A program made the position numbers and the translations under genes. Shown piece after piece: positions 1 to 62,016 of a DNA stretch of 64,000 bases; the stretch's first letter is position 1, and each line of letters starts with the position of its first letter. The notes under the pieces are model-generated. The model was given only the letters and a program-made list of their open reading frames with translations. It made no database searches and was not told where the DNA came from. The DNA comes from Candidatus Bathyarchaeia archaeon (GTDB lineage Bacteria; Patescibacteriota; Microgenomatia; PFEM01; JAFGMK01). The stretch spans positions 113,067-177,066 of the forward strand of contig DATKWK010000035.1 of assembly GCA_035529595.1 (NCBI GenBank). The letters are read 5' to 3'.

Positions 1-1134
1 TCTGATATATTTAGAGATATTAACTAAAATTCCGGCTGCAGTAAGTGTCAGTAATAGTGACGAACCGCCATATGAAATAAAAGGAAGCGGAATACCGGTT
101 AAAGGAACTAAAGCAACCATTGCTCCGAGATTGACTAGAGCCTGAAGTCCAAGCCAAGCGGTTATACCCGAAGCAAGCAGTTTTCCAAACATATCGGGAG
201 ACCTTTGTGCGATACGAAACCCACGAGCGATCAGTAAAGCAAAAACCAGTACCAAAAAGGAAGCACCTACAAAACCTAATTCTTCTGCAATAACAGCAAA
301 TATGGAGTCGGTTGCCGCCGCTGGTAAATATTCATATTTTTGTCTCGATTGGCCTAACCCCAAACCAAACAGATTACCCGACCCAAGCGCAATTAAAATT
401 TGTCTTATATGGTAAGAGGCTCCCAAAGGGTCTCGAAGAGGATTTAGAAAGGTTAGGAACCTAGCCTTTCGATAGGGAGAAGAAATCGCCAAAATAATTC
501 CGCCAATTATTCCGAAGATCATTAAGCCGATAACTTGAATAATTGGTGCACCCGAAACAAAATAGACCAGAAAACCACTACCTAGAATAATCACCGTCGT
601 TCCCAAATCAGGTTGAAACATCATTAGAATTACGATCAAACCGGAAACCAGCAACAGCGGTAAATAATTCTTTTTCTTAACCAGATATGCTGCCAGATAA
701 ATAATGAAGGCGAGTTTAACTATCTCTGATGGCTGAAAGTTTATTCCACCAAAATTCAACCAGCGCCGTGCTCCAAAGTGCAAAAAACCGATTCTGGGAA
801 GAATAACTAGAATCAGACCGATAAAAGAGGCAAACAGAAACAAAGGTACCAATTTTTGAAGCTTCTGATAAGGAAAAAGGGATGCAACCAGAAAACTTAC
901 AAAACCGAAGATCACCCAACGAAACTGAAGTCTAAAATAATAAAGTTTATCGGCAAAATCTCGATAGGCTTCAACTGCTGAAGCGTTAGCTACCATTATC
1001 AAACCAAACAAAGTTAAAAAAAGCACTATCCCCACTAATAACCAGTCGGGCTGGCGGACAGATGACTCAAGAGAGAGCCTTCTTTTTTTCTTTTTACCTT
1101 TAATTCTATTTTTTTTAAAGATAATTGACTTCAT
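1..1134 (-). CDS. ftsW: FtsW/RodA-type SEDS protein (lipid II flippase / peptidoglycan glycosyltransferase), C-terminus cut by window start
   Basis: Own translation of the minus strand; the ORF track omits it because it runs off the window. ATG at 1134, stop codon 9 nt upstream. Multi-TM protein containing 'LPLLLVSGLIVILMMFQPDLGTTVII' and the SEDS hallmark 'TGIPLPFISYGGSSLL' near position 1. Confidence 0.8.
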   Translation of the reverse strand, partial: MKSIIFKKNRIKGKKKKRRLSLESSVRQPDWLLVGIVLFLTLFGLIMVANASAVEAYRDFADKLYYFRLQFRWVIFGFVSFLVASLFPYQKLQKLVPLFLFASFIGLILVILPRIGFLHFGARRWLNFGGINFQPSEIVKLAFIIYLAAYLVKKKNYLPLLLVSGLIVILMMFQPDLGTTVIILGSGFLVYFVSGAPIIQVIGLMIFGIIGGIILAISSPYRKARFLTFLNPLRDPLGASYHIRQILIALGSGNLFGLGLGQSRQKYEYLPAAATDSIFAVIAEELGFVGASFLVLVFALLIARGFRIAQRSPDMFGKLLASGITAWLGLQALVNLGAMVALVPLTGIPLPFISYGGSSLLLTLTAAGILVNISKYIR

Positions 1135-1276
1135 TCCTAATAATTATAGCAAATACTTAAATTAATTCCCTCCATCCTAGCGCTAGCATTATTTGCAGTC
1201 CGATTAAATTGGACCTGGATTCCTCGATAAACTCGAAATAATGAGAGTTTATACAACGCTTTCTATTGTAATTAGA

Positions 1277-1305
1277 TTGAGGATGAGCTATTAAAAGTGT
1301 AAAAT
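1277..1305 (+). promoter_or_regulatory. possible sigma70-like promoter TTGAGG(1277-1282)-17 bp-TAAAAT(1300-1305) in the divergent ftsW/PP-loop-gene intergenic region
   Basis: Hexamers and spacing read directly from sequence. The -10 box lies only ~18 nt from the first ATG (1323), so any transcript would be nearly leaderless. AT-rich DNA gives chance matches. Confidence 0.2.
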
Positions 1306-1319
1306 TACGCCAAGGTAGC

Positions 1320-2699
1320 TTGATGACAGTTTCCAATTCAAACAAACAGTACCCGCGTTTTTTTTATAAAAGCTTTAGTTTTAGAAAAAAAGGTAACAAC
1401 CTATTTTTATCTTTCGAGTTCTTCACTGAACCTAATCTTTATTTTAAACCGGAACTGGTGATTTTTAACCTTCCCCAATATACCCAGAACTTAGATAAGG
1501 ACTTACTTAACAATCTGGTTTTTCACCTGGGACTAATAGAAATCTTAAGCTACTGGAAGGCAACTTGCTCTCCAGAGATTATCATCGAAGCCGGTTACTT
1601 GAACAAAAAACAGATCAGTTGGTGGCACAATTTAATACTAAAAGGAATGGGTGAGTTTTTCTACACAAATCAGATTGATTTTAAACGGAAAAACTTTCTG
1701 ACGATAAAGAATGCTCACCTAAAAACTAAATTCACCCGTAAAACAGAAAAAGCCGGACTTAATTCCAAGACATTTCTGGTCCCGTTTGCCGGCGGAAAAG
1801 ATTCGATCGTCACCGCCCAACTACTAAAGAAAAACAAGGAAGATTTCAGACTTTTTTGTCTTAATCCAACCTCTTCATGCTTAAAAAGCATAGAATTAAT
1901 CACTACTAAGCAACCAATTATTGTTCAAAGAACAATTGATCCGCAGCTGCTGGAATTAAATAAAAGAGGTTATCTTAACGGCCATACCCCATTTACAGCC
2001 TATCTGTCTTTTTTAGGTGTTATCTGCACTGTCTTATTCGACTGCGGCACCGTAATTTTTTCCAATGAAAGAAGCGCTAATGAGGGAAATCTCATCTATC
2101 GCAGCCAGATGATCAACCATCAATATTCTAAAAGTTGGGAATTTGAAAAAAAGTTTTCTAGGTACTGCCGTAAATATCTAATTCAAGTTAATTATTTAAG
2201 TTTATTACGACCTCTTTATGAGATTCAAATCACCAAAATATTTTCACGGTATCCTCAATATTTTGGCCATTTCAAAAGCTGTAATGTTGGTCAAAAAGAA
2301 AACATTTGGTGCCAACACTGCGCGAAATGCTTAGCCACATTTACTCTTCTTTATCCCTTTATCAGCCAGAAAAAAATTATTGAAATCTTCGGTATTAATC
2401 TTCTTGACGAAAAAGATAACTTGCCTATTCTTAAAAAACTTCTCGGAACAGTAGGTTTTAAACCTTTTGAATGTGTTCCAACTAAAGAGGAAGTAAAAAG
2501 TGCTCTGTATTTAGCTTACAAAAAAGACCAGAAAAATAAATACAAGCTTTCGTTAGCTTTGAGATACTTTAAGTCACGATATTTTCCGGAATTCAAGTAT
2601 TTACAGAAGTCGGCAAAAGAAATATTAAATTCCTGGGGTAAAAACCATAGCCTTACGAAAAGATTGACAAAAGTTCTCAAAGAGGCAATGCGGGGATGA
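1320..2699 (+). CDS. PP-loop superfamily ATP pyrophosphatase-fold protein (AGGKDS P-loop at ~res 157, C-terminal CQHCAKC), candidate MurL-like ATP-dependent epimerase (hypothesis)
   Basis: 459-aa ORF, start TTG 1320 or more likely ATG 1323. 'LVPFAGGKDSIVTAQLL' matches the SGGxDS PP-loop. Stop overlaps the start of the downstream MurD-family gene (ATGA at 2696-2699). Confidence 0.5.
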   Translation: MMTVSNSNKQYPRFFYKSFSFRKKGNNLFLSFEFFTEPNLYFKPELVIFNLPQYTQNLDKDLLNNLVFHLGLIEILSYWKATCSPEIIIEAGYLNKKQISWWHNLILKGMGEFFYTNQIDFKRKNFLTIKNAHLKTKFTRKTEKAGLNSKTFLVPFAGGKDSIVTAQLLKKNKEDFRLFCLNPTSSCLKSIELITTKQPIIVQRTIDPQLLELNKRGYLNGHTPFTAYLSFLGVICTVLFDCGTVIFSNERSANEGNLIYRSQMINHQYSKSWEFEKKFSRYCRKYLIQVNYLSLLRPLYEIQITKIFSRYPQYFGHFKSCNVGQKENIWCQHCAKCLATFTLLYPFISQKKIIEIFGINLLDEKDNLPILKKLLGTVGFKPFECVPTKEEVKSALYLAYKKDQKNKYKLSLALRYFKSRYFPEFKYLQKSAKEILNSWGKNHSLTKRLTKVLKEAMRG

Positions 2700-4123
2700 A
2701 AAAAAGGGAGAAATTACTGCTTTTTTTAAAAGATAAGAAGATACTTATTCTCGGTTTTGGCAGTGAAGGCCAGGCTGCCTATACGTATCTTCGGCAAAAC
2801 TTTCCCCAAAAAATAATTGGGGTTGCTGATCGTCTGACAACAAAAAAGTTCGGAGAAAAACAACAAAATATTCTTAAAAGTGATAAGCAATTAAAAATTC
2901 ATTTAGGGAGGAAATACCTAGGTGATCTTAATAAATATGATCTGATCATTAAATCTCCGGGTGTCCCTAGTCATTTACCCCAAATAAAAACATTCATAAA
3001 AAGGGGCGGAAAGATTACTTCTCAAACAGAATTGCTGCTTGAATATTGCCCGGGTGAAATCGTCGGTGTCACCGGAACTAAAGGAAAGACAACGACGGCA
3101 AGTCTTATATATGAGATTCTTAGAACGAAATTTAGGGACGTCCGCCTGGTTGGAAATATCGGTCATACTTCACTGTCGTTTGTTAACCGGGCGAGAAAAA
3201 ATACTATCTTTGTCTTTGAATTTTCCAGTCATCAGCTAGTCAGTCTTAAGGTTAGTCCGCATGTCGCCGTTTTCCTAAATATCTTTCCGGAACATTTAGA
3301 TTATTACTCGAATTTCAGAAAATATTTACGGGCTAAAGAAAACATTACTCTCCATCAAAAAACGAATGATTATTTTATTTATAATCGGGCATTTCCGGAT
3401 ATCCGCCGAATCGCCAGCAAGACTCGGGCAAATAATATCCCTTTTTCTCTTGAAGCGCGAAAAGGCAGCATTTGTTTTATAAAAGATAATTATCTTTTAT
3501 ACCGAAAGGAAAGAATTATCAAGACAACTGAGGTTCCTCTTCTTGGCCGCTTCAATCTCCAGAACGTTATGCCGGCTGTAATCGTTGCCAAGTTATACCA
3601 TATTCCTAACCGGGAGATTGTTAAGACAATCGGTAACTTTCATCCCGTTAAACATCGGTTGGAAAAAGTCGGTACCTTTAATGAAATTATTTTCTACAAT
3701 GACTCGATCGCAACTATTCCTCAAGCAACTATTGCCGCCCTCGAGGCATTGGGTAATCAAGTGGAAACACTTATCTTAGGTGGATATGAGCGCCATTTAA
3801 ATTATCATCAACTGGCAACAAAAATTTTGGAGACCAAACTTAAAAACTTAATTCTGTTCCCCACGACAGGTAAAGAAATCTGGCGCAATATCAAGCTAGA
3901 AATCGGAGATAGAAAAAGCAACCTTCCTAATCATCTATTTACTAAAGAAATGGAGAAAGCCGTAGTCTGGGCTTACCGGTACACTAGTCCGGGTAAAATT
4001 TGCTTGCTTTCACCAGCCGCAGCCAGTTTCAATCTGTTTCGGGATTACCAGGAGAGAGGAAACCTTTTCAAGAAATATGTCAAAAAAATTGGGCAGGCCT
4101 CCTCAGATAACCGCCAACCATAG
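2696..4123 (+). CDS. murD: UDP-N-acetylmuramoyl-L-alanine--glutamate ligase (MurD family; possibly an L-Glu-adding MurD2)
   Basis: 475 aa. N-terminal Rossmann-like 'KILILGFGSEGQAAYTYL', 'IIKSPGVP', 'ITSQTELLL', P-loop 'GVTGTKGKTTTASLI', C-terminal 'LILGGYERHLNYHQLA'. This matches the MurD domain pattern rather than MurC/E/F. Confidence 0.8.
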   Translation: MKKREKLLLFLKDKKILILGFGSEGQAAYTYLRQNFPQKIIGVADRLTTKKFGEKQQNILKSDKQLKIHLGRKYLGDLNKYDLIIKSPGVPSHLPQIKTFIKRGGKITSQTELLLEYCPGEIVGVTGTKGKTTTASLIYEILRTKFRDVRLVGNIGHTSLSFVNRARKNTIFVFEFSSHQLVSLKVSPHVAVFLNIFPEHLDYYSNFRKYLRAKENITLHQKTNDYFIYNRAFPDIRRIASKTRANNIPFSLEARKGSICFIKDNYLLYRKERIIKTTEVPLLGRFNLQNVMPAVIVAKLYHIPNREIVKTIGNFHPVKHRLEKVGTFNEIIFYNDSIATIPQATIAALEALGNQVETLILGGYERHLNYHQLATKILETKLKNLILFPTTGKEIWRNIKLEIGDRKSNLPNHLFTKEMEKAVVWAYRYTSPGKICLLSPAAASFNLFRDYQERGNLFKKYVKKIGQASSDNRQP

Positions 4124-5134
4124 GCCAAAAAGCGCCAAAATCAAACCGGCCAACCAGGCGCGCATTACAATTTTTGGCTCCTCCCAACCTCGGTTTTGCA
4201 GCCATAAATGAAACGGAGCAACCGCAAAAGCTTTTTTCTTTAAAAAATTTTTAGATAATATTTGGATTAAGCTGGTAGAAATCTCCACAATGTAGAGACC
4301 GCCTATTATAGCCAAAGCGGCGATCTTTCCGATTAACAATCCAACTACGGCTAAGGTAGCCCCAAATGATAAAGCACCAACATCTCCCAGCCAGAGACGT
4401 GCTGGATAAACATTGAAGTATAAAAAAGCGATAATTGCCCCAAGCCAGATTGAAATAAATGCCGACAGGACAGTATCGATTACGGTATGCGAGAGAATCC
4501 AAAAAGCAAAAAGACAAATCATTAGCAGGCCGGTTGAAAGACCGTCCAAGCCGTCAGTAATGTTATAGGCATTAGCAAAAGATACGATTATGAAGGCACT
4601 TAGAGGCACAAACCATAGTCCGAGATCAATTTCTCCTAAAAAAGGAATATAGATAAAGTCGATTCCTAAATTAAAATATAAGAGTATGGCAACGACGATG
4701 GCTAAAATGCACTGGATGAGGAATTTTTCACGAAGTCTCAGACCGAAAAAACCGCTTTTTTCAAAACCAAAGAATTTATGGAAATCGTCATATAAGCCCA
4801 ATAGGCCAAACGATATAAAAGAAAAAAAAATAACGTTAAGTTCTTCTTTAATTGGATGAGCTGTTGAAATATAAACACCTAAAATATTTATCAGGGGAAA
4901 CAGAATAACGTAGAGAAGACATACCATAATGATAATTAATAGGCCTCCGCCGACCGGCGTCCCTTCCTTTTTACTATGAAGCCTATCAAAAATCTTTGCC
5001 CTCAAACCCAGGAAATCGCGAGTTATTTGTTTCTGCCGTAAAAATTTCAATCTGTATAGAAGATTGATAAAAGGCACAATCAAAACCGAAGTAATAATAA
5101 AGGAAAAGATTAAAAGCCCCAGATAAAGAGACAT
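4103..5134 (-). CDS. mraY: phospho-N-acetylmuramoyl-pentapeptide transferase
   Basis: 343 aa polytopic membrane protein with MraY motifs 'KKEGTPVGGG', 'NAYNITDGLDGL', 'YPARLWLGDVGALSFGA'. Confidence 0.9.
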   Translation of the reverse strand: MSLYLGLLIFSFIITSVLIVPFINLLYRLKFLRQKQITRDFLGLRAKIFDRLHSKKEGTPVGGGLLIIIMVCLLYVILFPLINILGVYISTAHPIKEELNVIFFSFISFGLLGLYDDFHKFFGFEKSGFFGLRLREKFLIQCILAIVVAILLYFNLGIDFIYIPFLGEIDLGLWFVPLSAFIIVSFANAYNITDGLDGLSTGLLMICLFAFWILSHTVIDTVLSAFISIWLGAIIAFLYFNVYPARLWLGDVGALSFGATLAVVGLLIGKIAALAIIGGLYIVEISTSLIQILSKNFLKKKAFAVAPFHLWLQNRGWEEPKIVMRAWLAGLILALFGLWLAVI

Positions 5135-5157: not shown

Positions 5158-5547
5158 TTAAAAATTTACCATTAACTTGATAAGTTTAGGCATGAAAATC
5201 AAGCCACCTACAATCACTGAACCGACGACCCCTAACAAGACCATTCCGGAAGCTACGTCCTTAGCCATTTTTGCTTTCTGGTGCCATTCTTCTTTTACTA
5301 AATCAGTTATTGCCTCAAGTGAAGTATTAATCATCTCTACGGTCACAACAGCAAAAATTGCCCAGACAATCATAGTAAATTCTATAAGAGAAACTTTCAA
5401 TACCAAAGCAACGACAAAAACCAAAACCGAAATAATTCCCATTAACTTGAGATTTCTCTCATTCCTGAAAGAAAGAACTATTCCAGAAATCGCATTCTTA
5501 AAGGACTGCTTATGATTGCCATTTTTCATGTGACCAAAACCACTCAT
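5158..5547 (-). CDS. dgkA: diacylglycerol kinase / undecaprenol kinase family (DgkA)
   Basis: 129 aa, 3 TM, 'EMINTSLEAITD' matches the prokaryotic DAGK signature. Start may be the internal Met (MKNGNHKQ). Confidence 0.7.
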   Translation of the reverse strand: MSGFGHMKNGNHKQSFKNAISGIVLSFRNERNLKLMGIISVLVFVVALVLKVSLIEFTMIVWAIFAVVTVEMINTSLEAITDLVKEEWHQKAKMAKDVASGMVLLGVVGSVIVGGLIFMPKLIKLMVNF

Positions 5548-5607
5548 GCATGTAAGAGTCTATTACATTCTACTCGGCTTAGTCAAGAAACAGAAACAAT
5601 TCTAACA

Positions 5608-6627
5608 TTAGAGATGACGAAAGACCCGCCTAAGAGTTTCAAAACAATATGTAACCCCGTAACGAATAGAGAGCGGCAGATCCTGGGCATGAAGCCAGTT
5701 AACCCGCTGACCTCCGAAACCTTTTTTAAAGGTTGTTACGCCGGCAAAACGATGACGAGGATTATCATTAGGCGCAATGCCCCAAAAATTATAAATGCGG
5801 CAGCCTCTTTTTTTGGCCTCTTTGATTGCCTCCCACTGAATCAGGTGGGAAGCAGGAACCCGGCTGGCTCCATGGGTTGAACCCGAATAGTGGTATACCG
5901 CCGTATCACCGTAAAATATTATCATTGAGACAGCGATAATCTTTTTTTGGTATTCAGCTAAAAGTAAAAGCGCTTGATTATCTCCGGTAAAAACCTCAAA
6001 TTGTTTTCTTAAAAATTCGTACGAAAAAGGGACGAATTTATGCCGCTTGGCCGTATCCAGTTGAAAACGATACAATATCTTGATATCTCTTATATCTCGA
6101 CTAAAAAGTATGCGCACCTTGCCCTTGGTCGCCTTCCTGATACAGTGACGAGTGGTTTTTCTCATGCCGGCTAACAATTCACTTTCAGGAGAACTAAGAT
6201 CAAGTTGCCAAGTCGTTTCCGCATGCATATGCATTGGCGCATTTAGAAAGCCAGCTTTCTTAAAGAACCGGCGGTTTTGGTCGTTATCAGAAATCGAAGG
6301 CCTGACTCTGATAAAAACTGCCTTTTCCAGTTTCCCCAAATTCTTAAGATAACTGACAAACTCTTTAAAATAATTTTGATTTTGCCAATCAAATAAAGGC
6401 CCGCCGGGACAAGAAAGATAAGTACCCCTTTTGGCTTGTTCTTTTATTAATAAAGACACCCCGACCAGCCTTTTTTTCTCGAAAAAACCTAAACGAAATA
6501 TTTTTTCTCCCAAGGCTTGGTAAAACTCTCCCCAGCTCCAAGATTGAAGGAAAACATTGGGGTTATGACTCAAGACAAATCTATCCCAAATATTTTTATT
6601 ATCGACCGGTTTTAACTCCATAATCAA
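5608..6627 (-). CDS. FemAB-family aminoacyl-tRNA-dependent peptidoglycan aminoacyltransferase (FemX/MurM-like)
   Basis: 339 aa. N-terminal 'NVFLQSWSWGEF' is typical of FemABX, and the size and GNAT-like architecture are consistent. Confidence 0.7.
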   Translation of the reverse strand: MIMELKPVDNKNIWDRFVLSHNPNVFLQSWSWGEFYQALGEKIFRLGFFEKKRLVGVSLLIKEQAKRGTYLSCPGGPLFDWQNQNYFKEFVSYLKNLGKLEKAVFIRVRPSISDNDQNRRFFKKAGFLNAPMHMHAETTWQLDLSSPESELLAGMRKTTRHCIRKATKGKVRILFSRDIRDIKILYRFQLDTAKRHKFVPFSYEFLRKQFEVFTGDNQALLLLAEYQKKIIAVSMIIFYGDTAVYHYSGSTHGASRVPASHLIQWEAIKEAKKRGCRIYNFWGIAPNDNPRHRFAGVTTFKKGFGGQRVNWLHAQDLPLSIRYGVTYCFETLRRVFRHL

Positions 6628-7867
6628 AAAATTGTCTGATTACTTTAATAACTTTTTTTGCCTCTCTTAAGCCGATTTTCGGATGAGTTGGTAAATTAAC
6701 AACCAGAGGAGAAGTCTTTTCCGCTACCGGACAAGTTTTGGGATCATAACCAATCACCGAATAATTTACTCCCGGTGGTGAAATTGACGGATAATACCAA
6801 TTATTTAAAATCACTTCTCTAATCTTTGCAAATCGGTATAATTTCTGGGCCTTTTCGGTTTTAATCGTAAACCGCAGCAAAGGAAAAACATTTGCCCCTT
6901 CCTGATAGTTGGGTAACTCAATCGGTAAATTCTCTAAACCGGCTGCATAAAGCTTGACTATTCTTTGGCGGTTTTCATTAAACTGTGAAAGTTTAGCTAA
7001 TTGAAAGCACGCCAACAAGGCTAAACTATTTGGGATCCGGCCGATAAAATAAGAAGGTAAAATGCCTCTTTGCTCGCAATCTTGCACCGGATTGATAAAT
7101 ATTCTCAGCTTCTGAAAAAAGACTAAAAGAATTTTTCCTAACGAAAAAAAATTGTAGACCGACAAAATAAGACTAAATAAAACCAGGTAAAGCAATTGAC
7201 GAAAAACAAAAAAACGGGTTGGGTAAGAAAGCGATCGATGATATTTTTTTAGCTTATTAAATAGTTTTTGATCTTTGGTAATGACCATTCCCCCGAAAAC
7301 GGAAGAAATGACTTTGTCTCTGCCAAAACTGAAAAAAGCCGCCTCTCCAAAAGTACCCAATTTTTTTCCAACGAAGGAAGCACCAATCACGTGAGCGCAA
7401 TCTTCAATCATCTTCAGTCCATATTTAGCGGCAATTTTGACAATTTCGTTGACCGGGGCCGGGTAACCGAAAGTATGTTGAACGATAATTGCTTTACTTT
7501 TAGGAGTAATTTTCCTGGCTAGATCATCCGGGTCCATATTGAATGAATCCTTGTCAATATCAACATAAACCGGTTTTGCTCCACATTTAATAACGCTGTT
7601 GGCAACTACCACGCAGGTAAACGCTTGAAGTAAAACTTCATCCCCTTTGGCAATACCTAAACAATTAAGAATCGCCAGCAAGCCGGTCCGGCCGTTAAGA
7701 AAACTAATCGTTCGAAAACCGGGATAGATATTTTCAAAGTCGGTTTCAAGTTGTTTGGTCCCTTTACCATGAACCCAATTTTTCGGTTGGAAAATTAACT
7801 TTAAAGCTTTCAGTATATCGGCAGCGTTGTTATTAGGCAACAAAGAGACGGAAATCGGCTTAAACAT
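6599..7867 (-). CDS. DegT/DnrJ/EryC1/StrS-family PLP-dependent aminotransferase with a hydrophobic insertion
   Basis: 422 aa. 'EDCAHVIGASFVGKKLGTFGEAAFFSFGRDKVI' (FSF..K PLP-lysine region). A ~60-aa insertion 'RFFVFRQLLYLVLFSLILSVYNFFSLGKILLVFFQKL' looks membrane-embedded. Confidence 0.65.
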   Translation of the reverse strand: MFKPISVSLLPNNNAADILKALKLIFQPKNWVHGKGTKQLETDFENIYPGFRTISFLNGRTGLLAILNCLGIAKGDEVLLQAFTCVVVANSVIKCGAKPVYVDIDKDSFNMDPDDLARKITPKSKAIIVQHTFGYPAPVNEIVKIAAKYGLKMIEDCAHVIGASFVGKKLGTFGEAAFFSFGRDKVISSVFGGMVITKDQKLFNKLKKYHRSLSYPTRFFVFRQLLYLVLFSLILSVYNFFSLGKILLVFFQKLRIFINPVQDCEQRGILPSYFIGRIPNSLALLACFQLAKLSQFNENRQRIVKLYAAGLENLPIELPNYQEGANVFPLLRFTIKTEKAQKLYRFAKIREVILNNWYYPSISPPGVNYSVIGYDPKTCPVAEKTSPLVVNLPTHPKIGLREAKKVIKVIRQFFDYGVKTGR

Positions 7868-7870
7868 GAA

Positions 7871-9586
7871 TCAATTTCCCTCTGCTTTCTGAAAAACTTT
7901 TAGGTATTTATTAGCCTCTCTTCCTTCAAAAAGAACAACGTCATCTTTTTTCAGTAAAGAAAATATCTTTTGACGAAGATACCTTGGCGAACCGACTAGT
8001 GAAATTTTTTTTCGTTCTTCTTGATTAATACCAGCCAAAATTTCACGAAAATAATTTCGATTGGTTAAGAAAATTTGATCACAAATCTTAGTCGCTTTTC
8101 TAAAAACACGTTTGTGCTCAATCCAAGTTGCCTTACCCAGTTCGATCATTGGTTGAAAGATTAAAAACCTCTGTCCCAAGAATAGCTTTAAGTAATTAAG
8201 TGCCGCTAAAACACCTTCCGGATTACTATTGTATGTATCATTAATCAAAGTCGAATGATTCGGACCCTCAACCGAATTCATAGTTCCTGGCAATGACTTG
8301 ATCTTATCAATTTCTTGAGAAATTTCTTTCAAAGTTAATCCTAAATTAGATGCTATCGCAGTTGCCGCTAACAGGTTACTGATGTTTTGTTTACCCAATA
8401 GTCTGGCTTGAAATGTTTGTTTTTCTTCTCCTTTGGTAACTTGAAAATTAAGTTTATCCTTGAAAACCTTTATTTTAGAAGCATATAAATCAGTTTGGTA
8501 ATTTTTAGTTGAATAAAGTATTTTTTTTAAGCGGGTCAATTGAGAAAATTTTAAACATAATTTATCATCTGCATTTAAGATCACTAGACCGTTTCCCGGT
8601 AAACTATCAATCAACTCAAATTTTGCTTCCACTAAGTTTTCAAGTTTACCAAAAAGTGACAGATGTTGAGTTCCTAAGCCGGTGATTACACCAATTTCAG
8701 GTTTAACAACATCGCAAATCGTTTTGATTTCGCCTTTTTTATAGGCACCCATTTCAACAATATAAAATTGATCATTTCCGTCAAGTTCCAACAATATTTG
8801 CCTTGCTATACCAATTGCCGTATTATGATGAACATGCGTTGCCAAGATTTTAAATCGGCTATTTAAGATCGATGCAAGAAACTCTTTAGTGCTGGTTTTT
8901 CCGAAACTTCCGGTAATCCCGATTACTTTCAAGTCAGGATAAGTTTTTATTTTCTTAATTGCTTTTCTGATAATTTCCCTTTTAAAAAATAAGCTCGGTA
9001 AAGCAAGGGAAGCGACTGAAATAGCCACCCAAACCGCTATTAAAATGTCAGCCTCAAGGAAAACCTGTAGAACTCCGTCTGCGTAACGATTTATTTGGGC
9101 AACTTTAAAGCGGAAAAGCAAAAAACAAACTTGAAGCGAGACAGACTCAAGAGTAATTAATAAAGCTTTAAGAGTAAACTTAGGTCTTCTGAATTGATGA
9201 CGGAAGACCCGGCCTAAAATATAAAACATCTCACTGTAAAAAACTCCGCCCCACAGAACCCAATGGATATACCTGGCTTTGGCAAAAATTATAAAAACAT
9301 TCCCGTCGATAAAAAGGAATAACCAAACTAAAATCTTAAGAAGCAAATGAATATTTAACAAATCCCTTTTGCCTTGATAAGTTTTAAAGTAGTCCTTCAG
9401 CCGATCGAAACGGTACTCCTTTAACTGCCAAAGATAAAGAAAAGAAAAAAGATTACCCAAAACGACAACCACATAATAGACAGAAAACAGATCTCCCAAT
9501 AAAAAAGTAAGCAACTTGTTGCCGATGGGTAAAAGAAAAGTCACTATAAAGAACAGAATTGATGCGAAAAAAATAAAATATTCCAT
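7871..9586 (-). CDS. murF: MurF-like UDP-MurNAc-tripeptide--D-Ala-D-Ala ligase fused to an N-terminal ~200-aa polytopic membrane domain
   Basis: 571 aa. Residues ~215-571 carry MurF signatures 'IGITGSFGKTSTKEF', 'HNTAIGIA', 'EMGAYKKGEIK', 'ITGLGTQHLS', 'LINDTYNSNPEGVLAAL'. Residues 1-200 are 5-6 hydrophobic helices replacing canonical MurF domain 1. Confidence 0.75.
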   Translation of the reverse strand: MEYFIFFASILFFIVTFLLPIGNKLLTFLLGDLFSVYYVVVVLGNLFSFLYLWQLKEYRFDRLKDYFKTYQGKRDLLNIHLLLKILVWLFLFIDGNVFIIFAKARYIHWVLWGGVFYSEMFYILGRVFRHQFRRPKFTLKALLITLESVSLQVCFLLFRFKVAQINRYADGVLQVFLEADILIAVWVAISVASLALPSLFFKREIIRKAIKKIKTYPDLKVIGITGSFGKTSTKEFLASILNSRFKILATHVHHNTAIGIARQILLELDGNDQFYIVEMGAYKKGEIKTICDVVKPEIGVITGLGTQHLSLFGKLENLVEAKFELIDSLPGNGLVILNADDKLCLKFSQLTRLKKILYSTKNYQTDLYASKIKVFKDKLNFQVTKGEEKQTFQARLLGKQNISNLLAATAIASNLGLTLKEISQEIDKIKSLPGTMNSVEGPNHSTLINDTYNSNPEGVLAALNYLKLFLGQRFLIFQPMIELGKATWIEHKRVFRKATKICDQIFLTNRNYFREILAGINQEERKKISLVGSPRYLRQKIFSLLKKDDVVLFEGREANKYLKVFQKAEGN

Positions 9587-12783: not shown

Positions 12784-14229
12784 TTATTTAGCAAGTTTTT
12801 TAAGTTGGCGGACAATCATCTTGGCCAGTTGACTGCTATTGCCTGCTCCAAAAACGATGACTACGTCTTCTGAACGACTGTTTTTGGCAATAAAATCAGC
12901 TACTTTTTTGAAGTCTTCGATACAGCTTGCCTTTGGTAAGCCGATTTTAGCTGCCAATTCTTGGGCACTTAGACCGGAAGTTATTTTCTCTCTCCCCCAG
13001 AAAATTTCAGTAACTATTACCTGATTTGCCTTCTTCAGAGCGGTAACAAATTCATTCGTAAAAAACCGGAATCGCGTTTGGTGAGGCTCCAGTACTGCCC
13101 AAATAAACGACTTGGGATATCTTTGTTTAACTGCTTCTATTGTCGCTGCAATCTGAGTCGGATGATGGCCATAATCGTCAATTACGATCCTCCTGGCTTC
13201 TTTCCCAACAATTTCAAATCGTCTCTTAACGCCTGAAAAACTGTTAAAAACGGTTTTTAGCGTTTCACTATTAATGTTAAGAAACCAACCGCAAGCATAA
13301 GCCGCTAGAGCATTGTAAACATTGTGCCTGCCCGGAATTCTCAATTGGAAATCTTCTTTAATGGTTTTTTTTCCATGATCAAAAACAATCGAAAACCTGG
13401 TTGAAAATTTTTCTTGCCGGTTAATTATTCCCCGGAAATCTTTAGCAAAAGGAAAATCAAACGCCGAATCGAGATGAAAAGCGGTTATTTGAACCCTCTC
13501 CCGGTTTAATCTTAACTGGTTTTTGACTAAAATCTGCCGAATATTGTCATCATCACTATTAACAATAAGGATTTTGGGTTGATCCAGACGAAAGATGAAC
13601 CGGGTAAAACTTTTTCTTAGCTGGTCAAGGTTTGAAAAAAATTCAGGGTGATCCATTTCAATATTGGTGATAACGGCCATCTTGGGAGAATAGTTAAGAA
13701 AATTATTATAGTACTCATCAGCTTCACAAATAAAATAATTTGACTCGCCGCAGCGGACATTTGCTTGCCACACCGGAACGACACCGCCAACCAGCACAGT
13801 AGGATCAAGTTTTCCCGCCTCTAAAATCTGGCCGACTAAAGCGGAAGTAGTTGTCTTTCCGTGGGTTCCGGCAATGCAGACAAGATATTTATCTTTCTGA
13901 AGATACCGACCTATAAACTGCTGCCACGTTAATATAATTCCTCGTCTTTTTGCTTCCCGAATTTCAGGATGACGACTATTGACAATCAACACCGCCGGCG
14001 AAGTTACCAAAAGATCAGCTTTTCTCAAATGGCTGATATTATGACCGCCATGAATAGGGATCTTTAATTTCCTCAGTTGGTCAGTTGACGACGTGTTGGG
14101 ATTAAGATCACAGCCACTAACTTGAAAACCCTCGTACCTGGCAAGATAAGCGGCACCTGAACAACCACTGCCGCTAATACCCATAAAATGAATCCTCTTA
14201 ATCTCTTTTGCTGTTTTTCTCTTTTTCAC
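12784..14229 (-). CDS. murC: UDP-N-acetylmuramate--L-alanine ligase
   Basis: 481 aa. 'IHFMGISGSGCSGAAYLA' (MurC N-domain) and P-loop 'CIAGTHGKTTTSALV'. Confidence 0.85.
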   Translation of the reverse strand: MKKRKTAKEIKRIHFMGISGSGCSGAAYLARYEGFQVSGCDLNPNTSSTDQLRKLKIPIHGGHNISHLRKADLLVTSPAVLIVNSRHPEIREAKRRGIILTWQQFIGRYLQKDKYLVCIAGTHGKTTTSALVGQILEAGKLDPTVLVGGVVPVWQANVRCGESNYFICEADEYYNNFLNYSPKMAVITNIEMDHPEFFSNLDQLRKSFTRFIFRLDQPKILIVNSDDDNIRQILVKNQLRLNRERVQITAFHLDSAFDFPFAKDFRGIINRQEKFSTRFSIVFDHGKKTIKEDFQLRIPGRHNVYNALAAYACGWFLNINSETLKTVFNSFSGVKRRFEIVGKEARRIVIDDYGHHPTQIAATIEAVKQRYPKSFIWAVLEPHQTRFRFFTNEFVTALKKANQVIVTEIFWGREKITSGLSAQELAAKIGLPKASCIEDFKKVADFIAKNSRSEDVVIVFGAGNSSQLAKMIVRQLKKLAK

Positions 14230-14969
14230 AAGTTGTCTCCGATAGCGGCCACCGTTAAAAATTCGCCGAATGGACGGCCGTCTTTTCGAAAAGAAAAGAA
14301 TTCATCATTTCGACAGGCAGTACAGATACCGGCCGGTTCTATATTCTTTACCGGTATCCCGGATGTACGCAACTGCCAGATTAAAGGAACAGAGAGATCA
14401 AGATAATAAGCAGCATCCCTTATGTTTATCATGCCTGGCAAGTCACCAAAATTAGCCCGAAATTGTCTGGCTCTTTGTTTATTTATCCGGTAACAACAAG
14501 GCCCGATATGAGGCCCAATTCCAACCACAATATCTCCGACATGTCCTCCTAATTCTTTCAGCTTATCAACTAATTGACAGACAATATTATTAATAATTCC
14601 TTTCCATCCAGCGTGAGCAACACCTAAAACTATCTCCTGAGGATCATAAGCCACCAGAGGCAGGCAATCGGCGGTTTTAATTGCCAAAATTAGATTTTTT
14701 TCCTGAGTAACCAGACCATCTACTTTTTTAATCTCTGTCCCTTTATGATTAATCCAGGCAATTTCCACCCGGTTGCCATGAACCTGTTCCATAGTGACTA
14801 AATCATCAATCCTCAGGCCAATTTTACCTAAGAACTTTTGGATATTTTGTCTTTGTTTTACCTTGTCGGCCTCTGTCATATCTCCCATTGACCGGGAAGA
14901 AATTGCCTGAGTTAAATTTTCTTGTTGACTTAAGAGCTTGAAATAATAAAGATGTTCTTTCTTAAGCAT
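14226..14969 (-). CDS. pgeF: peptidoglycan editing factor PgeF / YfiH (DUF152 laccase-domain protein)
   Basis: 247 aa. 'KTADCLPL', 'VAHAGWKG' and 'GICTAC' match the conserved Cys/His triad of YfiH. Confidence 0.8.
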   Translation of the reverse strand: MLKKEHLYYFKLLSQQENLTQAISSRSMGDMTEADKVKQRQNIQKFLGKIGLRIDDLVTMEQVHGNRVEIAWINHKGTEIKKVDGLVTQEKNLILAIKTADCLPLVAYDPQEIVLGVAHAGWKGIINNIVCQLVDKLKELGGHVGDIVVGIGPHIGPCCYRINKQRARQFRANFGDLPGMINIRDAAYYLDLSVPLIWQLRTSGIPVKNIEPAGICTACRNDEFFSFRKDGRPFGEFLTVAAIGDNL

Positions 14970-16278
14970 TGCCCAACCTTTCCCGTAAGGCTGTTTTTAT
15001 TTCTTCATGCTCACTCCAGGGTTTTTCAATTCGCCCATAACATAGGCTCGCTTCATGTCCTTTACCGAAAAAGGCCACGATATCGTTCTTGCAAGCCAAT
15101 TTATTAATTGCAAACCTGATTGCTTCTCTTCTGTCAGATATCCGAAAATAAACACCTTTCAGCTTGCTAATCTGAGACTCGTTAATACCTGTCGGACTTT
15201 GATAAGTCAAATGACCTTTAAGGCATCCTTGAGCAATCTGATCAATAATTTTTTCCACGTCTTCGGTTCTTGGGTCTTCAGCGGTTAAAATCACAACATC
15301 GGCTATTCGAGCTGCAATCTCGCCCATCAGCGGTCTTTTATAAAAATCACGTAAGCCCGCACAGCCAAAAACGGCTATTATTCTTCTCTCGTTAGATTTT
15401 TCCTTCAAAGCAGTCAGTGCTTGTTGAAGACCATTAGGGGTATGGGCAAAATCAACAAAAACTTGGAAGTCTTGCCCTAAATCTATAATTTCCATCCGGC
15501 CGGTTACTCCAGTAAAAGCAGCCAGGCTTTTTCTGATTGTTTTATCGTCTATTTCTAAAGTTTTGGCAACGGCAATTGCCGCCAAACAGTTATACCGGTT
15601 ATACTCGCCGATCAGAGGGGTTTTAAACCTATAGGTGTTAGGAGTAAATTCGGCTTTCTTCTTAACCGCGTAAGTAACCAGCCGTGAGTTTCTTGATCTA
15701 GCCGTGTTTAGATAACTAAACGAACGATCATCTCTATTTAATACGACTACTTTGGTTTTTTTGAATAGCTTCCCCTTTACTTCTAAATATTTTGAATAAG
15801 TACCGTGATAATCCAAGTGTTCAGAAGTGACATTAGTAATTACCGCCATCTCAAATCTAATCCCCAGGAAGCGATTTTGTGCCAATCCATGGGAAGTACA
15901 TTCAAGTACTAAATATTTGATTTTTTGGTCAGCGATGTTCCGTAAAAGTCGCTGCAAAAAAAAAGGTTGGGGCGAGGTAACGTGAAGACCGATAGGGATT
16001 TTTTCTTGGCCGATTTTGGCACAGACTGTCGAAATAAGGGCCGCTTTTTTGCCGGCATGCAGTAAAATTTTATAGATCAATGTCGAAGTGGTTGTTTTAC
16101 CATCGGTTCCGGTAACGCCAATTATATAAAGTTTCCGGGAAGGAAACCGGAAATATAAATTGGCCGCTATCGCTTTCGGACCATGCCAAAAAAGATTAAC
16201 CAGCCAATCAGGGAAAAGTAACCGAAGATTCTCTCCCAGCTTACTATAACGAATCTTAGTCAAAATTCCTGAAAACAT
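14962..16278 (-). CDS. murE: UDP-N-acetylmuramoyl-L-alanyl-D-glutamate--diamino acid ligase (MurE); 'EDPR' suggests a DAP-type substrate
   Basis: 438 aa. 'IIGVTGTDGKTTTSTL', 'LECTSHGL', 'DFAHTPNGL', 'GCAGLRDFYKRP', and 'LTAEDPRTED' aligning to the E. coli DNPR motif. Confidence 0.85.
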   Translation of the reverse strand: MFSGILTKIRYSKLGENLRLLFPDWLVNLFWHGPKAIAANLYFRFPSRKLYIIGVTGTDGKTTTSTLIYKILLHAGKKAALISTVCAKIGQEKIPIGLHVTSPQPFFLQRLLRNIADQKIKYLVLECTSHGLAQNRFLGIRFEMAVITNVTSEHLDYHGTYSKYLEVKGKLFKKTKVVVLNRDDRSFSYLNTARSRNSRLVTYAVKKKAEFTPNTYRFKTPLIGEYNRYNCLAAIAVAKTLEIDDKTIRKSLAAFTGVTGRMEIIDLGQDFQVFVDFAHTPNGLQQALTALKEKSNERRIIAVFGCAGLRDFYKRPLMGEIAARIADVVILTAEDPRTEDVEKIIDQIAQGCLKGHLTYQSPTGINESQISKLKGVYFRISDRREAIRFAINKLACKNDIVAFFGKGHEASLCYGRIEKPWSEHEEIKTALRERLGNA

Positions 16279-48171: not shown

Positions 48172-51100
48172 TTAGTTTATTTTACGGCGAAGCCACTTAT
48201 CCTTTATAAAAGGATATCCCAAACACCCAAAACATGCAACCAAAGTCATACCGCTGATGAATAAGCCAATATAAAAAAGTCTTTGCGGACGGAATTCAAC
48301 GATTATTTCATAGTTTTCTCTCCCATCGACATCTGCCGGAGTAATATACCAAGAATTAGCATAGCCATTAACTAATAGATGTCTCTCTTCAGAAATTGGT
48401 TTACTACGAAGAGTTTCAAAAGTATTTCTATCAAAAAAGATGTTTTTATGGGTTCCTTCTTTAATCTCCCCATCAAAGTAACTAGCCACGACTTGCCCAT
48501 AATCGTTTTGAGTTTTGAGTTTTGAGTTTTGAGTTTTATCTATATATACTTTCCAGCCCTCGTGGAAACTTTCGGAAAATATTAAAGTATAAGGATTAAC
48601 GGCTCCTTCAACTTTAACTCGGTATTTCGTCGGATTAATTTTGGCAAAAGTAATTTTGGGTATTGCCTTTCTAGTATCTAATGCCTGATTTCCAATATCT
48701 TTAAGTCTTAAAATAACTTCCGGCTGAAAAATGCGCTCAATTGCCAAATCTTTCTCCTGAGCAGTTGATATCGACAAATGAGCAAAAGCTATTTCTGCTT
48801 CCGAGGAAGATTTGAAGAACATTTCAAAATGCCTAAACTCTTCATTAGTGGGAGATAAATATGTTTTGGCTACTTCTCCAGCTTCTCCTTCAGCAACAAA
48901 AAAGCTGCCGCCCAGAGGCGCTTTATAATCAAAACTAATCCGATAAATAGAGTTTGGCAAATAACCTTTTATCCTCAAATTTTCATCAACTAAATTCTCA
49001 CTAACTCCTTTTATGGTCAAAAACAACTCTTGTGCCCCTTTTTTAAAATATTCCTCTCCCAAGTTCATCCATCCAGCCGTATTTACGTTTTTTACGCCCC
49101 TCTCTATGCTCTCGCTCCTTAAAAATACTCCATAATTCCCCTCCTTCGGTACATTCAAATTATAAACCAACTGCGAAAAGTCTCGCTTAACCTCAAGCCC
49201 ATTAGCTCTTTCCTCCAACTCCTTAAAAACATCTTCCCAATCTCTTAATCTCCCAATTTCTTCTATTTTTACTCCATGCTCCCGCAAACTCCCCTCAAAG
49301 TTCGCCAAAAACCTCGGAAAATTCTTGTTTTTTGATTCTTTCAGGCTTATTAAAATCTCAAGAGCGTCTATCATTTCTCTCCGATAGCGCTCCGCCAGCC
49401 GTATTATCCGCTCTTCATCAATACTATCGGCAAACCTTTTCATCTCTACTATCCTCTTCGAGGCATAAAACAAATCCTTTTCAAACAACTTTTCGGGCTC
49501 TTTTCTAACCTTCCAGCTATCATATTCTTCCTCTTTTAAAATTAGGGGGTAAATCAATTGGTTTGGACTCCATCGGACATCAGGCAACTCTATCTCCCTG
49601 GGCACTATTGTCAATTCCTCTCCGCCAATCATATTCTCCAGCTTTCCTCTCACAAACACCTCATCCGCCCAATTCAATGCTGCCAGTTTCTTATCAGAGT
49701 TACCAGGAGTATCTGAAAGGTATATAGCTGATCTCATTTCGTAGTTATCAAGCCCCACTATATCCACCAAACTCTCTATGTTACCCCTCGCATAAATTAT
49801 ATTTTGGGGAATATAAAAACGGGGGAGAAAATATTCATCTTTAATTTTATAAATAAATAATTTGTCTCCAAAGTTCTTAAAATAATCTTCTTGGAAGTAT
49901 TTTTTTATTCCAGATTCCCATTTAATTAACGCCTCAACTCTAGTCTTGTCAATATCGTTCTGGTCTAATAAATAGTCAATCGTTCCCAGTTTAATAAAAT
50001 TAAAATTTTTTTTATCTACAAAGGCTTGCAGTATTTTGCTATAGGGAGCAATCTTATTATAATAATCTCCTATATAATTAGAATTACCAAATAAATGGTA
50101 TATTTTTGCATTTGAATTTCCCAAATTTTCATCATACCATTTATAATTCAAATCATAGCCTTCTGTCATAAAAGGGAAAGGCAATATGAAAGAGTCCTTG
50201 GTGCTCTTTGACCACGATGAATATTCATACCAATAATACGGCAATTTTATAAGATTTTTCTTCCAGCCTTCGTTTGTACGATCAAAAAAGTTATAAGAAA
50301 ACAATGGGATGCCGCCAATTGAAACAAGAAAAAAAACACAAACGATAAAAAAATTTTTATGATTTCTGTTTCTAAATTTTTCGTAAATATTATCCAAAGA
50401 GATTGAAAATAAAGTAACCATTAAGAATAAAACTAGGGGCATAAATTTCGCAAATGGCTCTCTGAAAATATAAAAGAAAGGAACATTCCTATAAAACCAT
50501 AAATATATTTCCGGAATAAAACTAGATCCGCTGGCAAACAAAATAAAGATTAATAAAAATAAAAATAAAACAATATTAGCAATTTTTCTACTTTTTTTGA
50601 AAAATAAGAAAGAAATTGAGAGGCTCGATATTATAAATGAGTGCAAAATTACAAAAGAATTATCATAAAAATATAGCCAAATATTATAAAAAACACCTTC
50701 GTAATCTAAATATTCCCACCATCCTCCTCTTAGTTGAAAAATTAAAAAAAGCGGCGAACCTATCGCTTTAAAAGTAGCTGCCTGCCTGATTTCATCAAAA
50801 TTATTCATCAGTAATCTATAAATGAGTCCTTGATAAAAAAAAATGGGCATCAATAAAATGAAGAAAATGCATAACCTATAAATATATTCCCTAAAAAAAT
50901 TAAACAAACTAATTTTTTCAGAAAATATAAATACCACTACCGCTATAACGTACACAAAAAGCGTCGTCGCTAACTGGGGCGGATTGCAAAAAATTGCCTG
51001 AAATAAAAAAAAGTAAACGAAATTGTATATTGCGTACCTATAACTTCTTGTCTTTAAAAACTTATATAAAAGAACAAAGAATAAGGGCATTAAAATGAGC

Positions 51101-51525
51101 TGGTACATTTTGGCACTATAAAAAATAGTCGAAGTAAAATAAAAATTGAATATATAGAGTAAGGAGCCTGTAAAAATTATGACATTATTACTGGTAAAGA
51201 ATCTTAATAGGCAGCTCATTCCAAGAAGAGAACAAAGTAGAAAAACCTGTAGAAATACTATTTGTATAGAGTGATTACTCAAGCCGACCTCTGATAGTAA
51301 TTTATAAAAAATAGCATTAGGAATAATCATCGTATGGTCGCCAAGAGATGATGCTTGCCCATAGTTTGCTTTTTCACTCCACGAAAACAAGTTTTTATCA
51401 ATTATATTTTGATAATTGGCAAAGCTAGACTCTTCTGATACAAACAGATACTCTCCTTTTAACCAGATAAACGGGATAATTATCGATAATATTATAAAAG
51501 ATATGATTAAATATTTTTTTTGCAT
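48172..51525 (-). CDS. giant polytopic membrane protein (N-terminal ~600 aa, >12 TM) with ~500-aa extracytoplasmic C-terminal domain; possible GT-C/YfhO-like enzyme
   Basis: 1117-aa ORF. Very AT-rich. Contains a (gttttga)x4.9 repeat at 48505-48538. Family assignment is only by architecture. Confidence 0.5.
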   Translation of the reverse strand: MQKKYLIISFIILSIIIPFIWLKGEYLFVSEESSFANYQNIIDKNLFSWSEKANYGQASSLGDHTMIIPNAIFYKLLSEVGLSNHSIQIVFLQVFLLCSLLGMSCLLRFFTSNNVIIFTGSLLYIFNFYFTSTIFYSAKMYQLILMPLFFVLLYKFLKTRSYRYAIYNFVYFFLFQAIFCNPPQLATTLFVYVIAVVVFIFSEKISLFNFFREYIYRLCIFFILLMPIFFYQGLIYRLLMNNFDEIRQAATFKAIGSPLFLIFQLRGGWWEYLDYEGVFYNIWLYFYDNSFVILHSFIISSLSISFLFFKKSRKIANIVLFLFLLIFILFASGSSFIPEIYLWFYRNVPFFYIFREPFAKFMPLVLFLMVTLFSISLDNIYEKFRNRNHKNFFIVCVFFLVSIGGIPLFSYNFFDRTNEGWKKNLIKLPYYWYEYSSWSKSTKDSFILPFPFMTEGYDLNYKWYDENLGNSNAKIYHLFGNSNYIGDYYNKIAPYSKILQAFVDKKNFNFIKLGTIDYLLDQNDIDKTRVEALIKWESGIKKYFQEDYFKNFGDKLFIYKIKDEYFLPRFYIPQNIIYARGNIESLVDIVGLDNYEMRSAIYLSDTPGNSDKKLAALNWADEVFVRGKLENMIGGEELTIVPREIELPDVRWSPNQLIYPLILKEEEYDSWKVRKEPEKLFEKDLFYASKRIVEMKRFADSIDEERIIRLAERYRREMIDALEILISLKESKNKNFPRFLANFEGSLREHGVKIEEIGRLRDWEDVFKELEERANGLEVKRDFSQLVYNLNVPKEGNYGVFLRSESIERGVKNVNTAGWMNLGEEYFKKGAQELFLTIKGVSENLVDENLRIKGYLPNSIYRISFDYKAPLGGSFFVAEGEAGEVAKTYLSPTNEEFRHFEMFFKSSSEAEIAFAHLSISTAQEKDLAIERIFQPEVILRLKDIGNQALDTRKAIPKITFAKINPTKYRVKVEGAVNPYTLIFSESFHEGWKVYIDKTQNSKLKTQNDYGQVVASYFDGEIKEGTHKNIFFDRNTFETLRSKPISEERHLLVNGYANSWYITPADVDGRENYEIIVEFRPQRLFYIGLFISGMTLVACFGCLGYPFIKDKWLRRKIN
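48505..48538. repeat. heptanucleotide tandem repeat (gttttga)x4 plus partial copy inside the 1117-aa gene
   Basis: Four perfect 7-mers at 48505-48532 plus 'gtttta'. Encodes KTQNSKLKTQN on the minus strand. Confidence 0.9.
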
Positions 51526-52178: not shown

Positions 52179-52187
52179 TTTTTCTAG

Positions 52188-53501: not shown

Positions 53502-53734
53502 ACTAAAACATTTCTGAAGCGAAAACTCCTGATTGATCTAAATCCTAACAAGACCAAAGCCCTTTTTCAATCATCTAATTCCTGAATGTCCGTAGTAAAG
53601 AAGGTCTGAGCAAGGCCACTAATTCTTTTCTTCTCTATTCTATCTATAACATCCAAAAGCCCGGTTGAATCAGCTTGCAATACATATTCCAAACCAGCTC
53701 TTTCCGAAAAATCATTTGCAGGACTTCTGATTTT

Positions 53735-56115: not shown

Positions 56116-56222
56116 AATTATTTATTATTTTTTAAATTAAATCCCCTTAGCAAAAATAATAGAAATCAATAATCTTTTTAATAAATCTAACGACATAATC
56201 ATTCATCTTCATGTTCCTTATT

Positions 56223-59771: not shown

Positions 59772-59785
59772 GATATTTTTTGATA

Positions 59786-61952: not shown

Positions 61953-62016
61953 AAAATGATTTCAAATATATTTTTTTAGCATTATAGTATACCTGTCTAT
62001 GTTTATCAAGATTTTT

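Follow-up and report, generated by a model that had tools for sequence, protein, structure and literature searches.

The two genes at the left end of the 64,000-nucleotide stretch of contig DATKWK010000035.1 analyzed here (the window) very probably encode a MurL–MurD2 pair that supplies the D-Glu of the peptidoglycan stem peptide without a glutamate racemase. The upstream gene, open reading frame 1 (ORF1; 1323..2699, plus strand, 458 aa), is a MurL homologue as judged by family profiles, and the downstream gene, ORF2 (2696..4123, plus strand, 475 aa), aligns as a MurD2-type ligase at both positions that switch stereospecificity; their public records are HUW21980.1 and HUW21981.1. A MurD2/MurL-type D-Glu route had been put forward for this locus from inspection of the DNA (the original prediction), and it gains support from the MurL profile, the specificity residues of the ligase, and a tree of MurL-linked ligases. 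The pair belongs to a known system, and current Pfam and NCBIfam models recognize the family. In Xanthomonas oryzae, the same two proteins are encoded in the same order (XOO_1319 followed by XOO_1320, murL then murD2), and L-Glu ligation, conversion of ATP to AMP, and unidirectional L-to-D epimerization have been described for the X. oryzae, Micromonospora, and Salinispora enzymes (reviewed in PMC8788868 and PMC5808125). The X. oryzae pair complements E. coli WM335, a D-Glu auxotroph. The published hosts are Gammaproteobacteria, Alphaproteobacteria, and rare actinomycetes, whereas the host here is a Microgenomates-like member of the candidate phyla radiation (CPR). Our literature search found no paper linking MurL/MurD2 to CPR or Patescibacteria. 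What goes beyond published work is the breadth of the family, its fusions, an R348/E182 discriminator checked against controls, a QueC-like fold with a four-cysteine (Cys4) motif, and an apparent displacement of murD.

ORF1 and the MurL family

The NCBIfam model NF041275, named 'UDP-N-acetyl-alpha-D-muramoyl-L-alanyl-L-glutamate epimerase' (MurL), matches ORF1 over its full length (E 6.7e-77, 258.9 bits, profile positions 10–445 of 447) and is the sole strong NCBIfam match of the protein. The Pfam assignments precomputed for the public record are PF26299 (MurL_N) and PF26298 (MurL_epimerase_C); a local copy of Pfam gave no match for ORF1. The family models for TilS, ThiI, QueC, and TtuA returned no match to ORF1 in either Pfam (E<0.01) or NCBIfam (E<0.1). 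The original prediction had left the choice between a MurL homologue and a new adenylating partner to a comparison of hidden Markov models (HMMs), and that comparison favors a MurL homologue, with the full-length NF041275 match and the Pfam MurL domains on one side and no match to the TilS, ThiI, or QueC families on the other. Any likeness to the tRNA-modifying families is confined to the fold.

A model of ORF1 built with AlphaFold2 on 30 homologues has a predicted local distance difference test score of 90.7 and a predicted template modeling score of 0.91. The best matches to its core in the PDB are QatC (9y01), Bacillus subtilis QueC (3bl5), and Cap9 (9nto), followed by YcfA, TtuA, and ThiI, and all of these top matches are PP-loop ATP-pyrophosphatases. 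No solved structure related to ORF1 by sequence was found. In the model, the core adopts a PP-loop fold like that of QueC and carries an invariant Cys4 motif. The loop itself, AGGKDS (residues 156–161; 1788..1805, plus strand, coordinates checked), is predicted to bind the alpha-phosphate and pyrophosphate of ATP. The Cys4 motif, C320-x9-C330-x2-C333-x2-C336 (2280..2330, plus strand), is of the same spacing class as C188-x8-C197-x2-C200-x2-C203 of E. coli QueC and is predicted to form a QueC-type zinc site; QueC-like enzymes and ORF1 thus share the PP-loop and a C-x8/9-C-x2-C-x2-C arrangement at an equivalent place. Both elements had been read from the sequence in the original prediction, in which the cysteines were described as a C-terminal cluster. 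The AGGKDS loop stands as described, and the cluster does lie in the C-terminal third of the protein but not at its extreme C terminus. Residues G157-G158-K159-D160-S161 and the four cysteines are invariant in 30 close homologues, and loop and cysteines are conserved across 76 homologues of diverse phyla, with 100% conservation of the four motif cysteines. A fifth invariant cysteine, Cys384 (2472..2474, plus strand), is also 100% conserved among the 76, with Cys82 at 95%, and is a candidate catalytic acid/base for exchange of the alpha-proton.

MurL has been reviewed as an enzyme that needs ATP and Mg, releases AMP, and 'lacks known conserved domains', and it has been proposed that it probably adenylates the Glu alpha-carboxylate (PMC8788868, PMC5808125). 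Such ATP-to-AMP chemistry at the alpha-carboxyl group would be expected of a PP-loop core like that of QueC, and the fold search bears out the earlier suggestion that an ATP-pyrophosphatase fold would suit MurL. The fold, the Cys4 motif, and the invariant Cys384 offer testable handles on the mechanism of an enzyme that had been reviewed as having no recognizable domains. QueC, for its part, activates a carboxylate through an adenylate. In contrast to QueC, ORF1 has no QueC HMM match, is twice as long, and carries the extra MurL_N and C-terminal helical domains; its proposed substrate would be the UDP-MurNAc-dipeptide, and the outcome would be epimerization and hydrolysis rather than an amide or nitrile. 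A sequence-level link between ORF1 and QueC was tried and rejected. A comparison with E. coli QueC by hhalign aligned only 35 residues (probability 3.9%), and the MurL family profile run against PDB sequences aligned only a PP-loop segment of TtuA (E 7e-6). Because these comparisons recover only the PP-loop segment of ~35–50 residues, the relation of ORF1 to QueC rests on the fold match and the motif spacing. As a matter of nomenclature, some JGI records automatically name MurL homologues '7-cyano-7-deazaguanine synthase'.

ORF2 and the ligases linked to MurL

ORF2 had been called a bona fide MurD-family ligase, and it is one: it scores 348.5 bits against the curated murD model TIGR01087 (cutoff 212) and contains the three Pfam domains MurD-like_N, Mur_ligase_M, and Mur_ligase_C. 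The TIGR01087 model has no power to separate MurD from MurD2. ORF2 shares with the canonical MurD of E. coli (b0088; PDB 1e0d, 2jff), which functions alongside MurI, its three domains, its place between mraY and ftsW, and its catalytic residues, in that all ATP/Mg and carbamyl-Lys residues (the equivalents of K115, N138, E157, H183, and K198) are kept. The two ligases differ in the Glu site, and the pathways differ in the partner enzyme, which here would be an epimerase acting after ligation and not a racemase of free Glu. According to Feng et al., the Glu sites of E. coli MurD and X. oryzae MurD2 differ at four positions (D182/E197, K348/R358, A414/P433, and L416/F435), of which only the first two affect stereospecificity, the A414 and L416 positions being irrelevant (PMC8788868). 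The E197D/R358K double mutant of X. oryzae MurD2 is a D-Glu ligase (PMC8788868). At the first of these switch positions ORF2 has Glu199 (3290..3292, plus strand) in place of Asp182, and at the second it has Arg366 (3791..3793, plus strand) in place of Lys348. Both assignments come from a HMMER alignment to E. coli MurD (2jff_A) and were confirmed by MAFFT with the authentic E. coli sequence. Phe445 occupies the L416 position, as in MurD2.

Since these ligases had been found by way of MurL, dcw (division and cell wall) clusters were also sampled by way of MraY as an unbiased control, which gave 15 CPR ligases whose retrieved flanking sequence (≤7 kb, shorter on small contigs) holds no murL. Position 348 is Arg in 72 of 73 MurL-linked ligases and Lys in all 15 controls. 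Position 182 is Glu in 69 of the 73, with Asp in 11 controls and Glu in 4. R348, taken with E182, offers an easy way to tell MurD2 from MurD by sequence. Position 414 is spread over Ala (33), Pro (25), Ser (12), and Thr (3) in the MurL-linked ligases, so that Pro is no family-wide feature. Loss of Lys319 was considered as a further MurD2 signature and ruled out: position 319 is Ile or Leu in 71 of 73 MurL-linked ligases, and the CPR controls with no MurL neighbor are likewise non-Lys (Phe, Thr, Val, or Ala). In a neighbor-joining tree that included E. coli MurD and no characterized X. oryzae sequence (MurD2 among them), the 74 MurL-linked ligases, ORF2 included, form one clade that leaves out the 15 controls and E. 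coli MurD (23 of 30 bootstraps). One MurL-adjacent ligase (L048:7298-8662) has the canonical D182/K348 state.

The association of murL with a MurD-type ligase is widespread. A scan with the MurL alignment of one genome per GTDB species found a relative encoded in at least 598 genomes, and we surveyed the best 80 loci of these, 77 of which have a usable downstream flank. Among the best 80 are numerous lineages of Patescibacteria (the cultured Minisyncoccus archaeiphilus is one) and loci labeled Acidobacteria, Rokubacteria, Methylomirabilia, Omnitrophota, Binatia, Bacteroidales, Delongbacteria, and Clostridia (Fumia xinanensis). Of the 77, 74 carry a MurD-family ligase downstream of murL and in the same orientation. 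The two genes overlap in 40 loci (by the same ATGA, that is, −4 nt, in 15 and otherwise in 25), form a single fused ORF free of stops and Ns in 4 (L050, L057, L062, and L080), and are separated by ≤200 nt in 14 and by >200 nt in 16. In L006, L008, and L079, murL has at least 4 kb of downstream flank and no ligase. A search of 1.84 billion representative proteins gave 2,506 MurL clusters (50% identity) at E<=1e-3 and 1,117 at E<=1e-30. About one-quarter of the best 150 representatives are 740–1,070 aa long, and among nine long representatives that were scanned there are six MurL-MurD fusions and one each of MurD-MurL, MurE-MurL, and MurB-MurL (P0126, P0129, P0148, and ~30 other representatives are examples of fusions). 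All of the fusion partners are enzymes of the cytoplasmic UDP-MurNAc-peptide pathway. That the two genes overlap and also occur naturally fused suggests that their expression is coupled, possibly with hand-over of the substrate; for the strict 1:1 stoichiometry read from the ATGA in the original prediction, the overlap is no more than suggestive.

The published view places the MurL/MurD2 pathway in few genera and hence treats it as a narrow-spectrum drug target. That view fails in the genome collections searched here, with ~2,500 clusters at 50% identity and linkage of MurL to MurD-type ligases that spans CPR, Acidobacteria, Rokubacteria, Omnitrophota, Bacteroidales, and Clostridia. Public annotation names ORF1 as 'hypothetical' and ORF2 as a D-glutamate ligase, and metabolic reconstructions of this genome and thousands like it can therefore be expected to infer, wrongly, a missing D-Glu source or a D-Glu requirement.

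Proposed route and alternatives

In the proposed route, ORF2 would add L-Glu, not D-Glu, onto UDP-MurNAc-L-Ala with ATP, and the PP-loop site of ORF1 would adenylate the Glu alpha-carboxylate. The acidified alpha-proton would then be exchanged with inversion, with Cys384, alone or together with Cys82, as a candidate base; a transient oxazolone is a chemically plausible intermediate. After inversion ORF1 would hydrolyze the adenylate, and MurE (14962..16278) would next add the diamino acid. Since adenylation is restricted to the L-form, as published for the MurL of X. oryzae, the reaction would run in one direction only. By this sequence of steps the pair would give the stem peptide its D-Glu with no free D-Glu pool, glutamate racemase, or D-amino-acid transaminase, and the two genes, co-transcribed and probably translationally coupled, would make up a portable two-gene module. 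All of this presumes that the CPR proteins share the published MurL/MurD2 chemistry, which their resemblance to the X. oryzae pair makes likely: on the MurL side there is the full-length profile match and a PP-loop fold that suits the published requirement for ATP-to-AMP conversion, and on the MurD2 side there are Glu and Arg at the specificity positions and Phe at the L416 position. In its own cluster, with murA, murC, murE, murF, mraY, ftsW, and murG, ORF2 is the only MurD-type ligase. Neither the 51 window ORFs of ≥150 aa nor the genes called in the adjoining 10 kb on the left include an Asp/Glu racemase or class-IV aminotransferase.

Several points weigh against assigning the pair to MurL and MurD2. 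The ORF1 score of 259 bits is far below the NF041275 cutoff of 700, which is tuned to Xanthomonadales equivalogs. It is for this reason that PGAP leaves ORF1 'hypothetical' and that we infer its orthology from context and not from the model threshold. A second departure from the X. oryzae pair is Ala443 of ORF2 at the A414 position, where X. oryzae MurD2 has Pro433. Glu at position 182 is present in 4 of the 15 control ligases, and the control class means that no murL is nearby, which is not proof of murL-free genomes. Streptococcus MurD has Arg at position 348 and yet uses D-Glu, so R348 alone is insufficient (PMC8788868). The comparison with XOO_1319 and XOO_1320 was limited to the profile and the published positions, and the biochemistry would have to be carried over from non-CPR enzymes, the only ones for which it is known. 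Finally, the racemase scan covered the 64-kb window and 10 kb to its left, and the window is <8% of a contig of ~847 kb, so a murI gene may lie elsewhere.

This last point is where an ordinary MurD could be accommodated. ORF2 would then add D-Glu provided by a racemase encoded elsewhere in a genome that the murI scan covered only in part, and the MurL-family protein would be an accessory, for example in proofreading or repair of L-Glu precursors. ORF2 does exceed the murD equivalog cutoff, NCBI does name it a D-glutamate ligase, and its Ala at position 414 is like that of E. coli MurD. We nevertheless regard an ordinary MurD as unlikely, because TIGR01087 is blind to the difference between MurD2 and MurD, both specificity-switching residues of ORF2 are in the MurD2 state, ORF2 falls inside the MurL-linked clade and apart from the MurDs of its nearest relatives, and the pairing of murL with a ligase is near-obligate and extends to fusions. 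The fold of ORF1 raises a different possibility, that the Glu alpha-carboxylate is adenylated for some other outcome, such as amidation to iso-glutamine, and that position 2 of the CPR stem peptide differs. The closest solved folds (QueC, QatC, and Cap9) are QueC-family enzymes, which make amides from adenylated carboxylates, and ORF1 has low identity to characterized MurL along with its score well under the equivalog cutoff. Such an outcome is very unlikely given that the MurL profile match is full length and includes both MurL-specific Pfam domains, that the same residues are conserved throughout the MurL family, and that the characterized MurLs, which come from two distant phyla, all epimerize. 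Moreover, a MurD2-type L-Glu ligase makes sense as a partner only if the L-center is later inverted, and the cassette contains no glutaminase or ammonia-donor partner.

The remaining alternative, that ORF1 is a tRNA- or nucleoside-modifying PP-loop enzyme of the QueC, TilS, ThiI, or TtuA type and a chance neighbor of murD, is effectively refuted. It could draw on the PP-loop and QueC-like Cys motif, on the automatic naming of homologues as 7-cyano-7-deazaguanine synthase, and on the presence of QueC, TtuA, and ThiI among the top fold matches. ORF1 matches none of those families in Pfam or NCBIfam, aligns with them in sequence only over the ~35–50-residue PP-loop segment, is twice the size of QueC with MurL-specific N- and C-terminal domains, and belongs to a family whose linkage and fusion with Mur enzymes are conserved.

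The mraY–ftsW slot and its surroundings

The cassette lies between mraY and ftsW, the usual place of murD, as the original prediction had recognized and as the Pfam identities of the neighbors and the E. coli order mraY-murD-ftsW confirm. To the left, ftsW (1..1134, minus strand; FtsW/RodA/SpoVE family, PF01098, E 1e-103) is divergent from murL and has its 3′ part cut by the window edge; its continuation is visible, together with murG, ftsA, and ftsZ, in locus L083. A divergent intergenic region, read directly from the sequence, spans 1135..1322. To the right, mraY (4103..5134, minus strand, PF00953) converges on murD2, and the 3′ ends overlap by 21 nt (4103..4123). Also correct were the earlier statements that the pair are the only plus-strand genes of the window, which holds among ORFs of ≥150 aa (2 of 51), and that the murL stop and murD2 start overlap as ATGA (2696..2699, plus strand). 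ORF1 is open from a TTG at 1320 (459 aa), and the public protein record begins at the ATG at 1323 (458 aa), which has an AAGG Shine-Dalgarno-like motif 8 nt 5′ of it. A GAGG stands 10 nt 5′ of the ORF2 start. A promoter and terminator scan around the cassette gave matches no commoner than in shuffled sequence, and no promoter is therefore claimed. The GC content of the cassette is that of its surroundings, and a search for flanking inverted repeats returned only short AT-rich chance pairs, nothing that would explain an inversion.

The antisense placement is atypical of the MurL/MurD2 system. In 31 related genomes the order mraY, murL, murD2, ftsW runs on one strand throughout, and only here are both flanking genes opposed to the cassette; L009 also has an opposed ftsW upstream, with no mraY found in its flank. 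The cassette differs in the same way from the X. oryzae pair, in being inverted relative to the dcw cluster with its 3′ end overlapping mraY. The nearest MraY relative, L084 (MraY 71% identical to that of the window), is collinear (murC-murA-murF-mraY-ligase-ftsW). FtsW identity between the two is 61%, and the L084 ligase, which is of the K348 type, shares only 36% with ORF2. ORF2 has a median identity of 44% to MurL-linked ligases from other phyla versus 35% to the ligases of MraY relatives. These comparisons are most simply read as the replacement of a canonical murD by an inverted murL-murD2 module in this slot; alternatively, an ancestor may have held both murL-murD2 and murD, with differential loss afterwards.

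Among the MraY-sampled relatives, the slot is empty (<400 nt) in 25 loci, holds murD alone in 9–10, a pyridoxal phosphate (PLP) enzyme with an ATP-grasp ligase in 5, murL (with murD2 in view or not) in 3, and something else in 4. The 25 loci in which mraY abuts ftsW with no ligase between are Microgenomates-like (L090, L094, L097, L100, L101, L119, L122–L128, and others), and five of these (L104–L106, L110, and L145) have a murD of the K348 type located a few kilobases upstream of mraY instead. The PLP/ATP-grasp slots (L085:9021-11208, L089:9454-11438, L091, L092, and L109) occur next to MraY proteins 62–70% identical to that of the window and have neither murD nor murL. Their PLP enzyme is of fold type II (Pfam PALP, with weak threonine-synthase/dehydratase-like NCBIfam matches) and overlaps the ATP-grasp ligase (ATP-grasp_3/YheCD-like), and one or two small ORFs with no family match are also present. 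This pair may be a third solution for stem-peptide position 2, or it may be an unrelated insertion. A more general proposal, which we hold only tentatively and think somewhat doubtful, is that murL-murD2 is a laterally mobile module that displaced a resident D-Glu-dependent murD in situ, inverted, and left no free D-Glu metabolism. If it is true, the MurL route would be a major source of peptidoglycan D-Glu in Patescibacteria and many uncultivated phyla, and the mraY–ftsW slot would be a hot spot of exchange between alternative ways of filling stem-peptide position 2, the PLP/ATP-grasp pair included.

A bacterial dcw/peptidoglycan cluster is present in full on the 846,852-bp contig, whose MraY and FtsW are closest to those of Beckwithbacteria and other Microgenomates-type CPR loci. 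The NCBI label 'Candidatus Bathyarchaeia archaeon' thus looks like a binning or taxonomy error. An Rfam scan of the window found no RNA family, so there is no rRNA or tRNA in it to fix the taxonomy. Strand bias is extreme, with 49 of the 51 ORFs of ≥150 aa on the minus strand and a negative GC skew throughout the 64 kb. Two further Mur ligases of the cluster have unusual N termini. The murF profile aligns with the MurF homologue (7871-9586, minus strand, 571 aa) from residue 218 onward only, and the first ~200 residues of the protein, which look hydrophobic and membrane-like by eye, take the place of the usual N-terminal domain; the MurE homologue (14962-16278, minus strand, 438 aa) starts at profile position 71 of 472 and lacks most of the N-terminal UDP-binding domain. 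Between murF and mraY (5158-7867, minus strand) lie genes for a diacylglycerol-kinase-family protein, a FemAB-family transferase, which hints at a branched or bridged stem peptide, and a DegT-type aminotransferase, and the peptidoglycan editing factor PgeF is encoded between murC and murE (14226-14969, minus strand). The stretches 24714-47000 and 48172-63549 (minus strand) begin with a long region for glycan synthesis, which encodes many glycosyltransferases of the GT4 and GT2 families and five membrane glycosyltransferases of the PMT_2 type, besides a sugar transferase and Wzy- and Wzx-like proteins. Beyond these are a 1,117-aa ORF with no NCBIfam match and then three radical-SAM/SPASM proteins, a thiamine pyrophosphate enzyme, methyltransferases, and a NeuB-like synthase.

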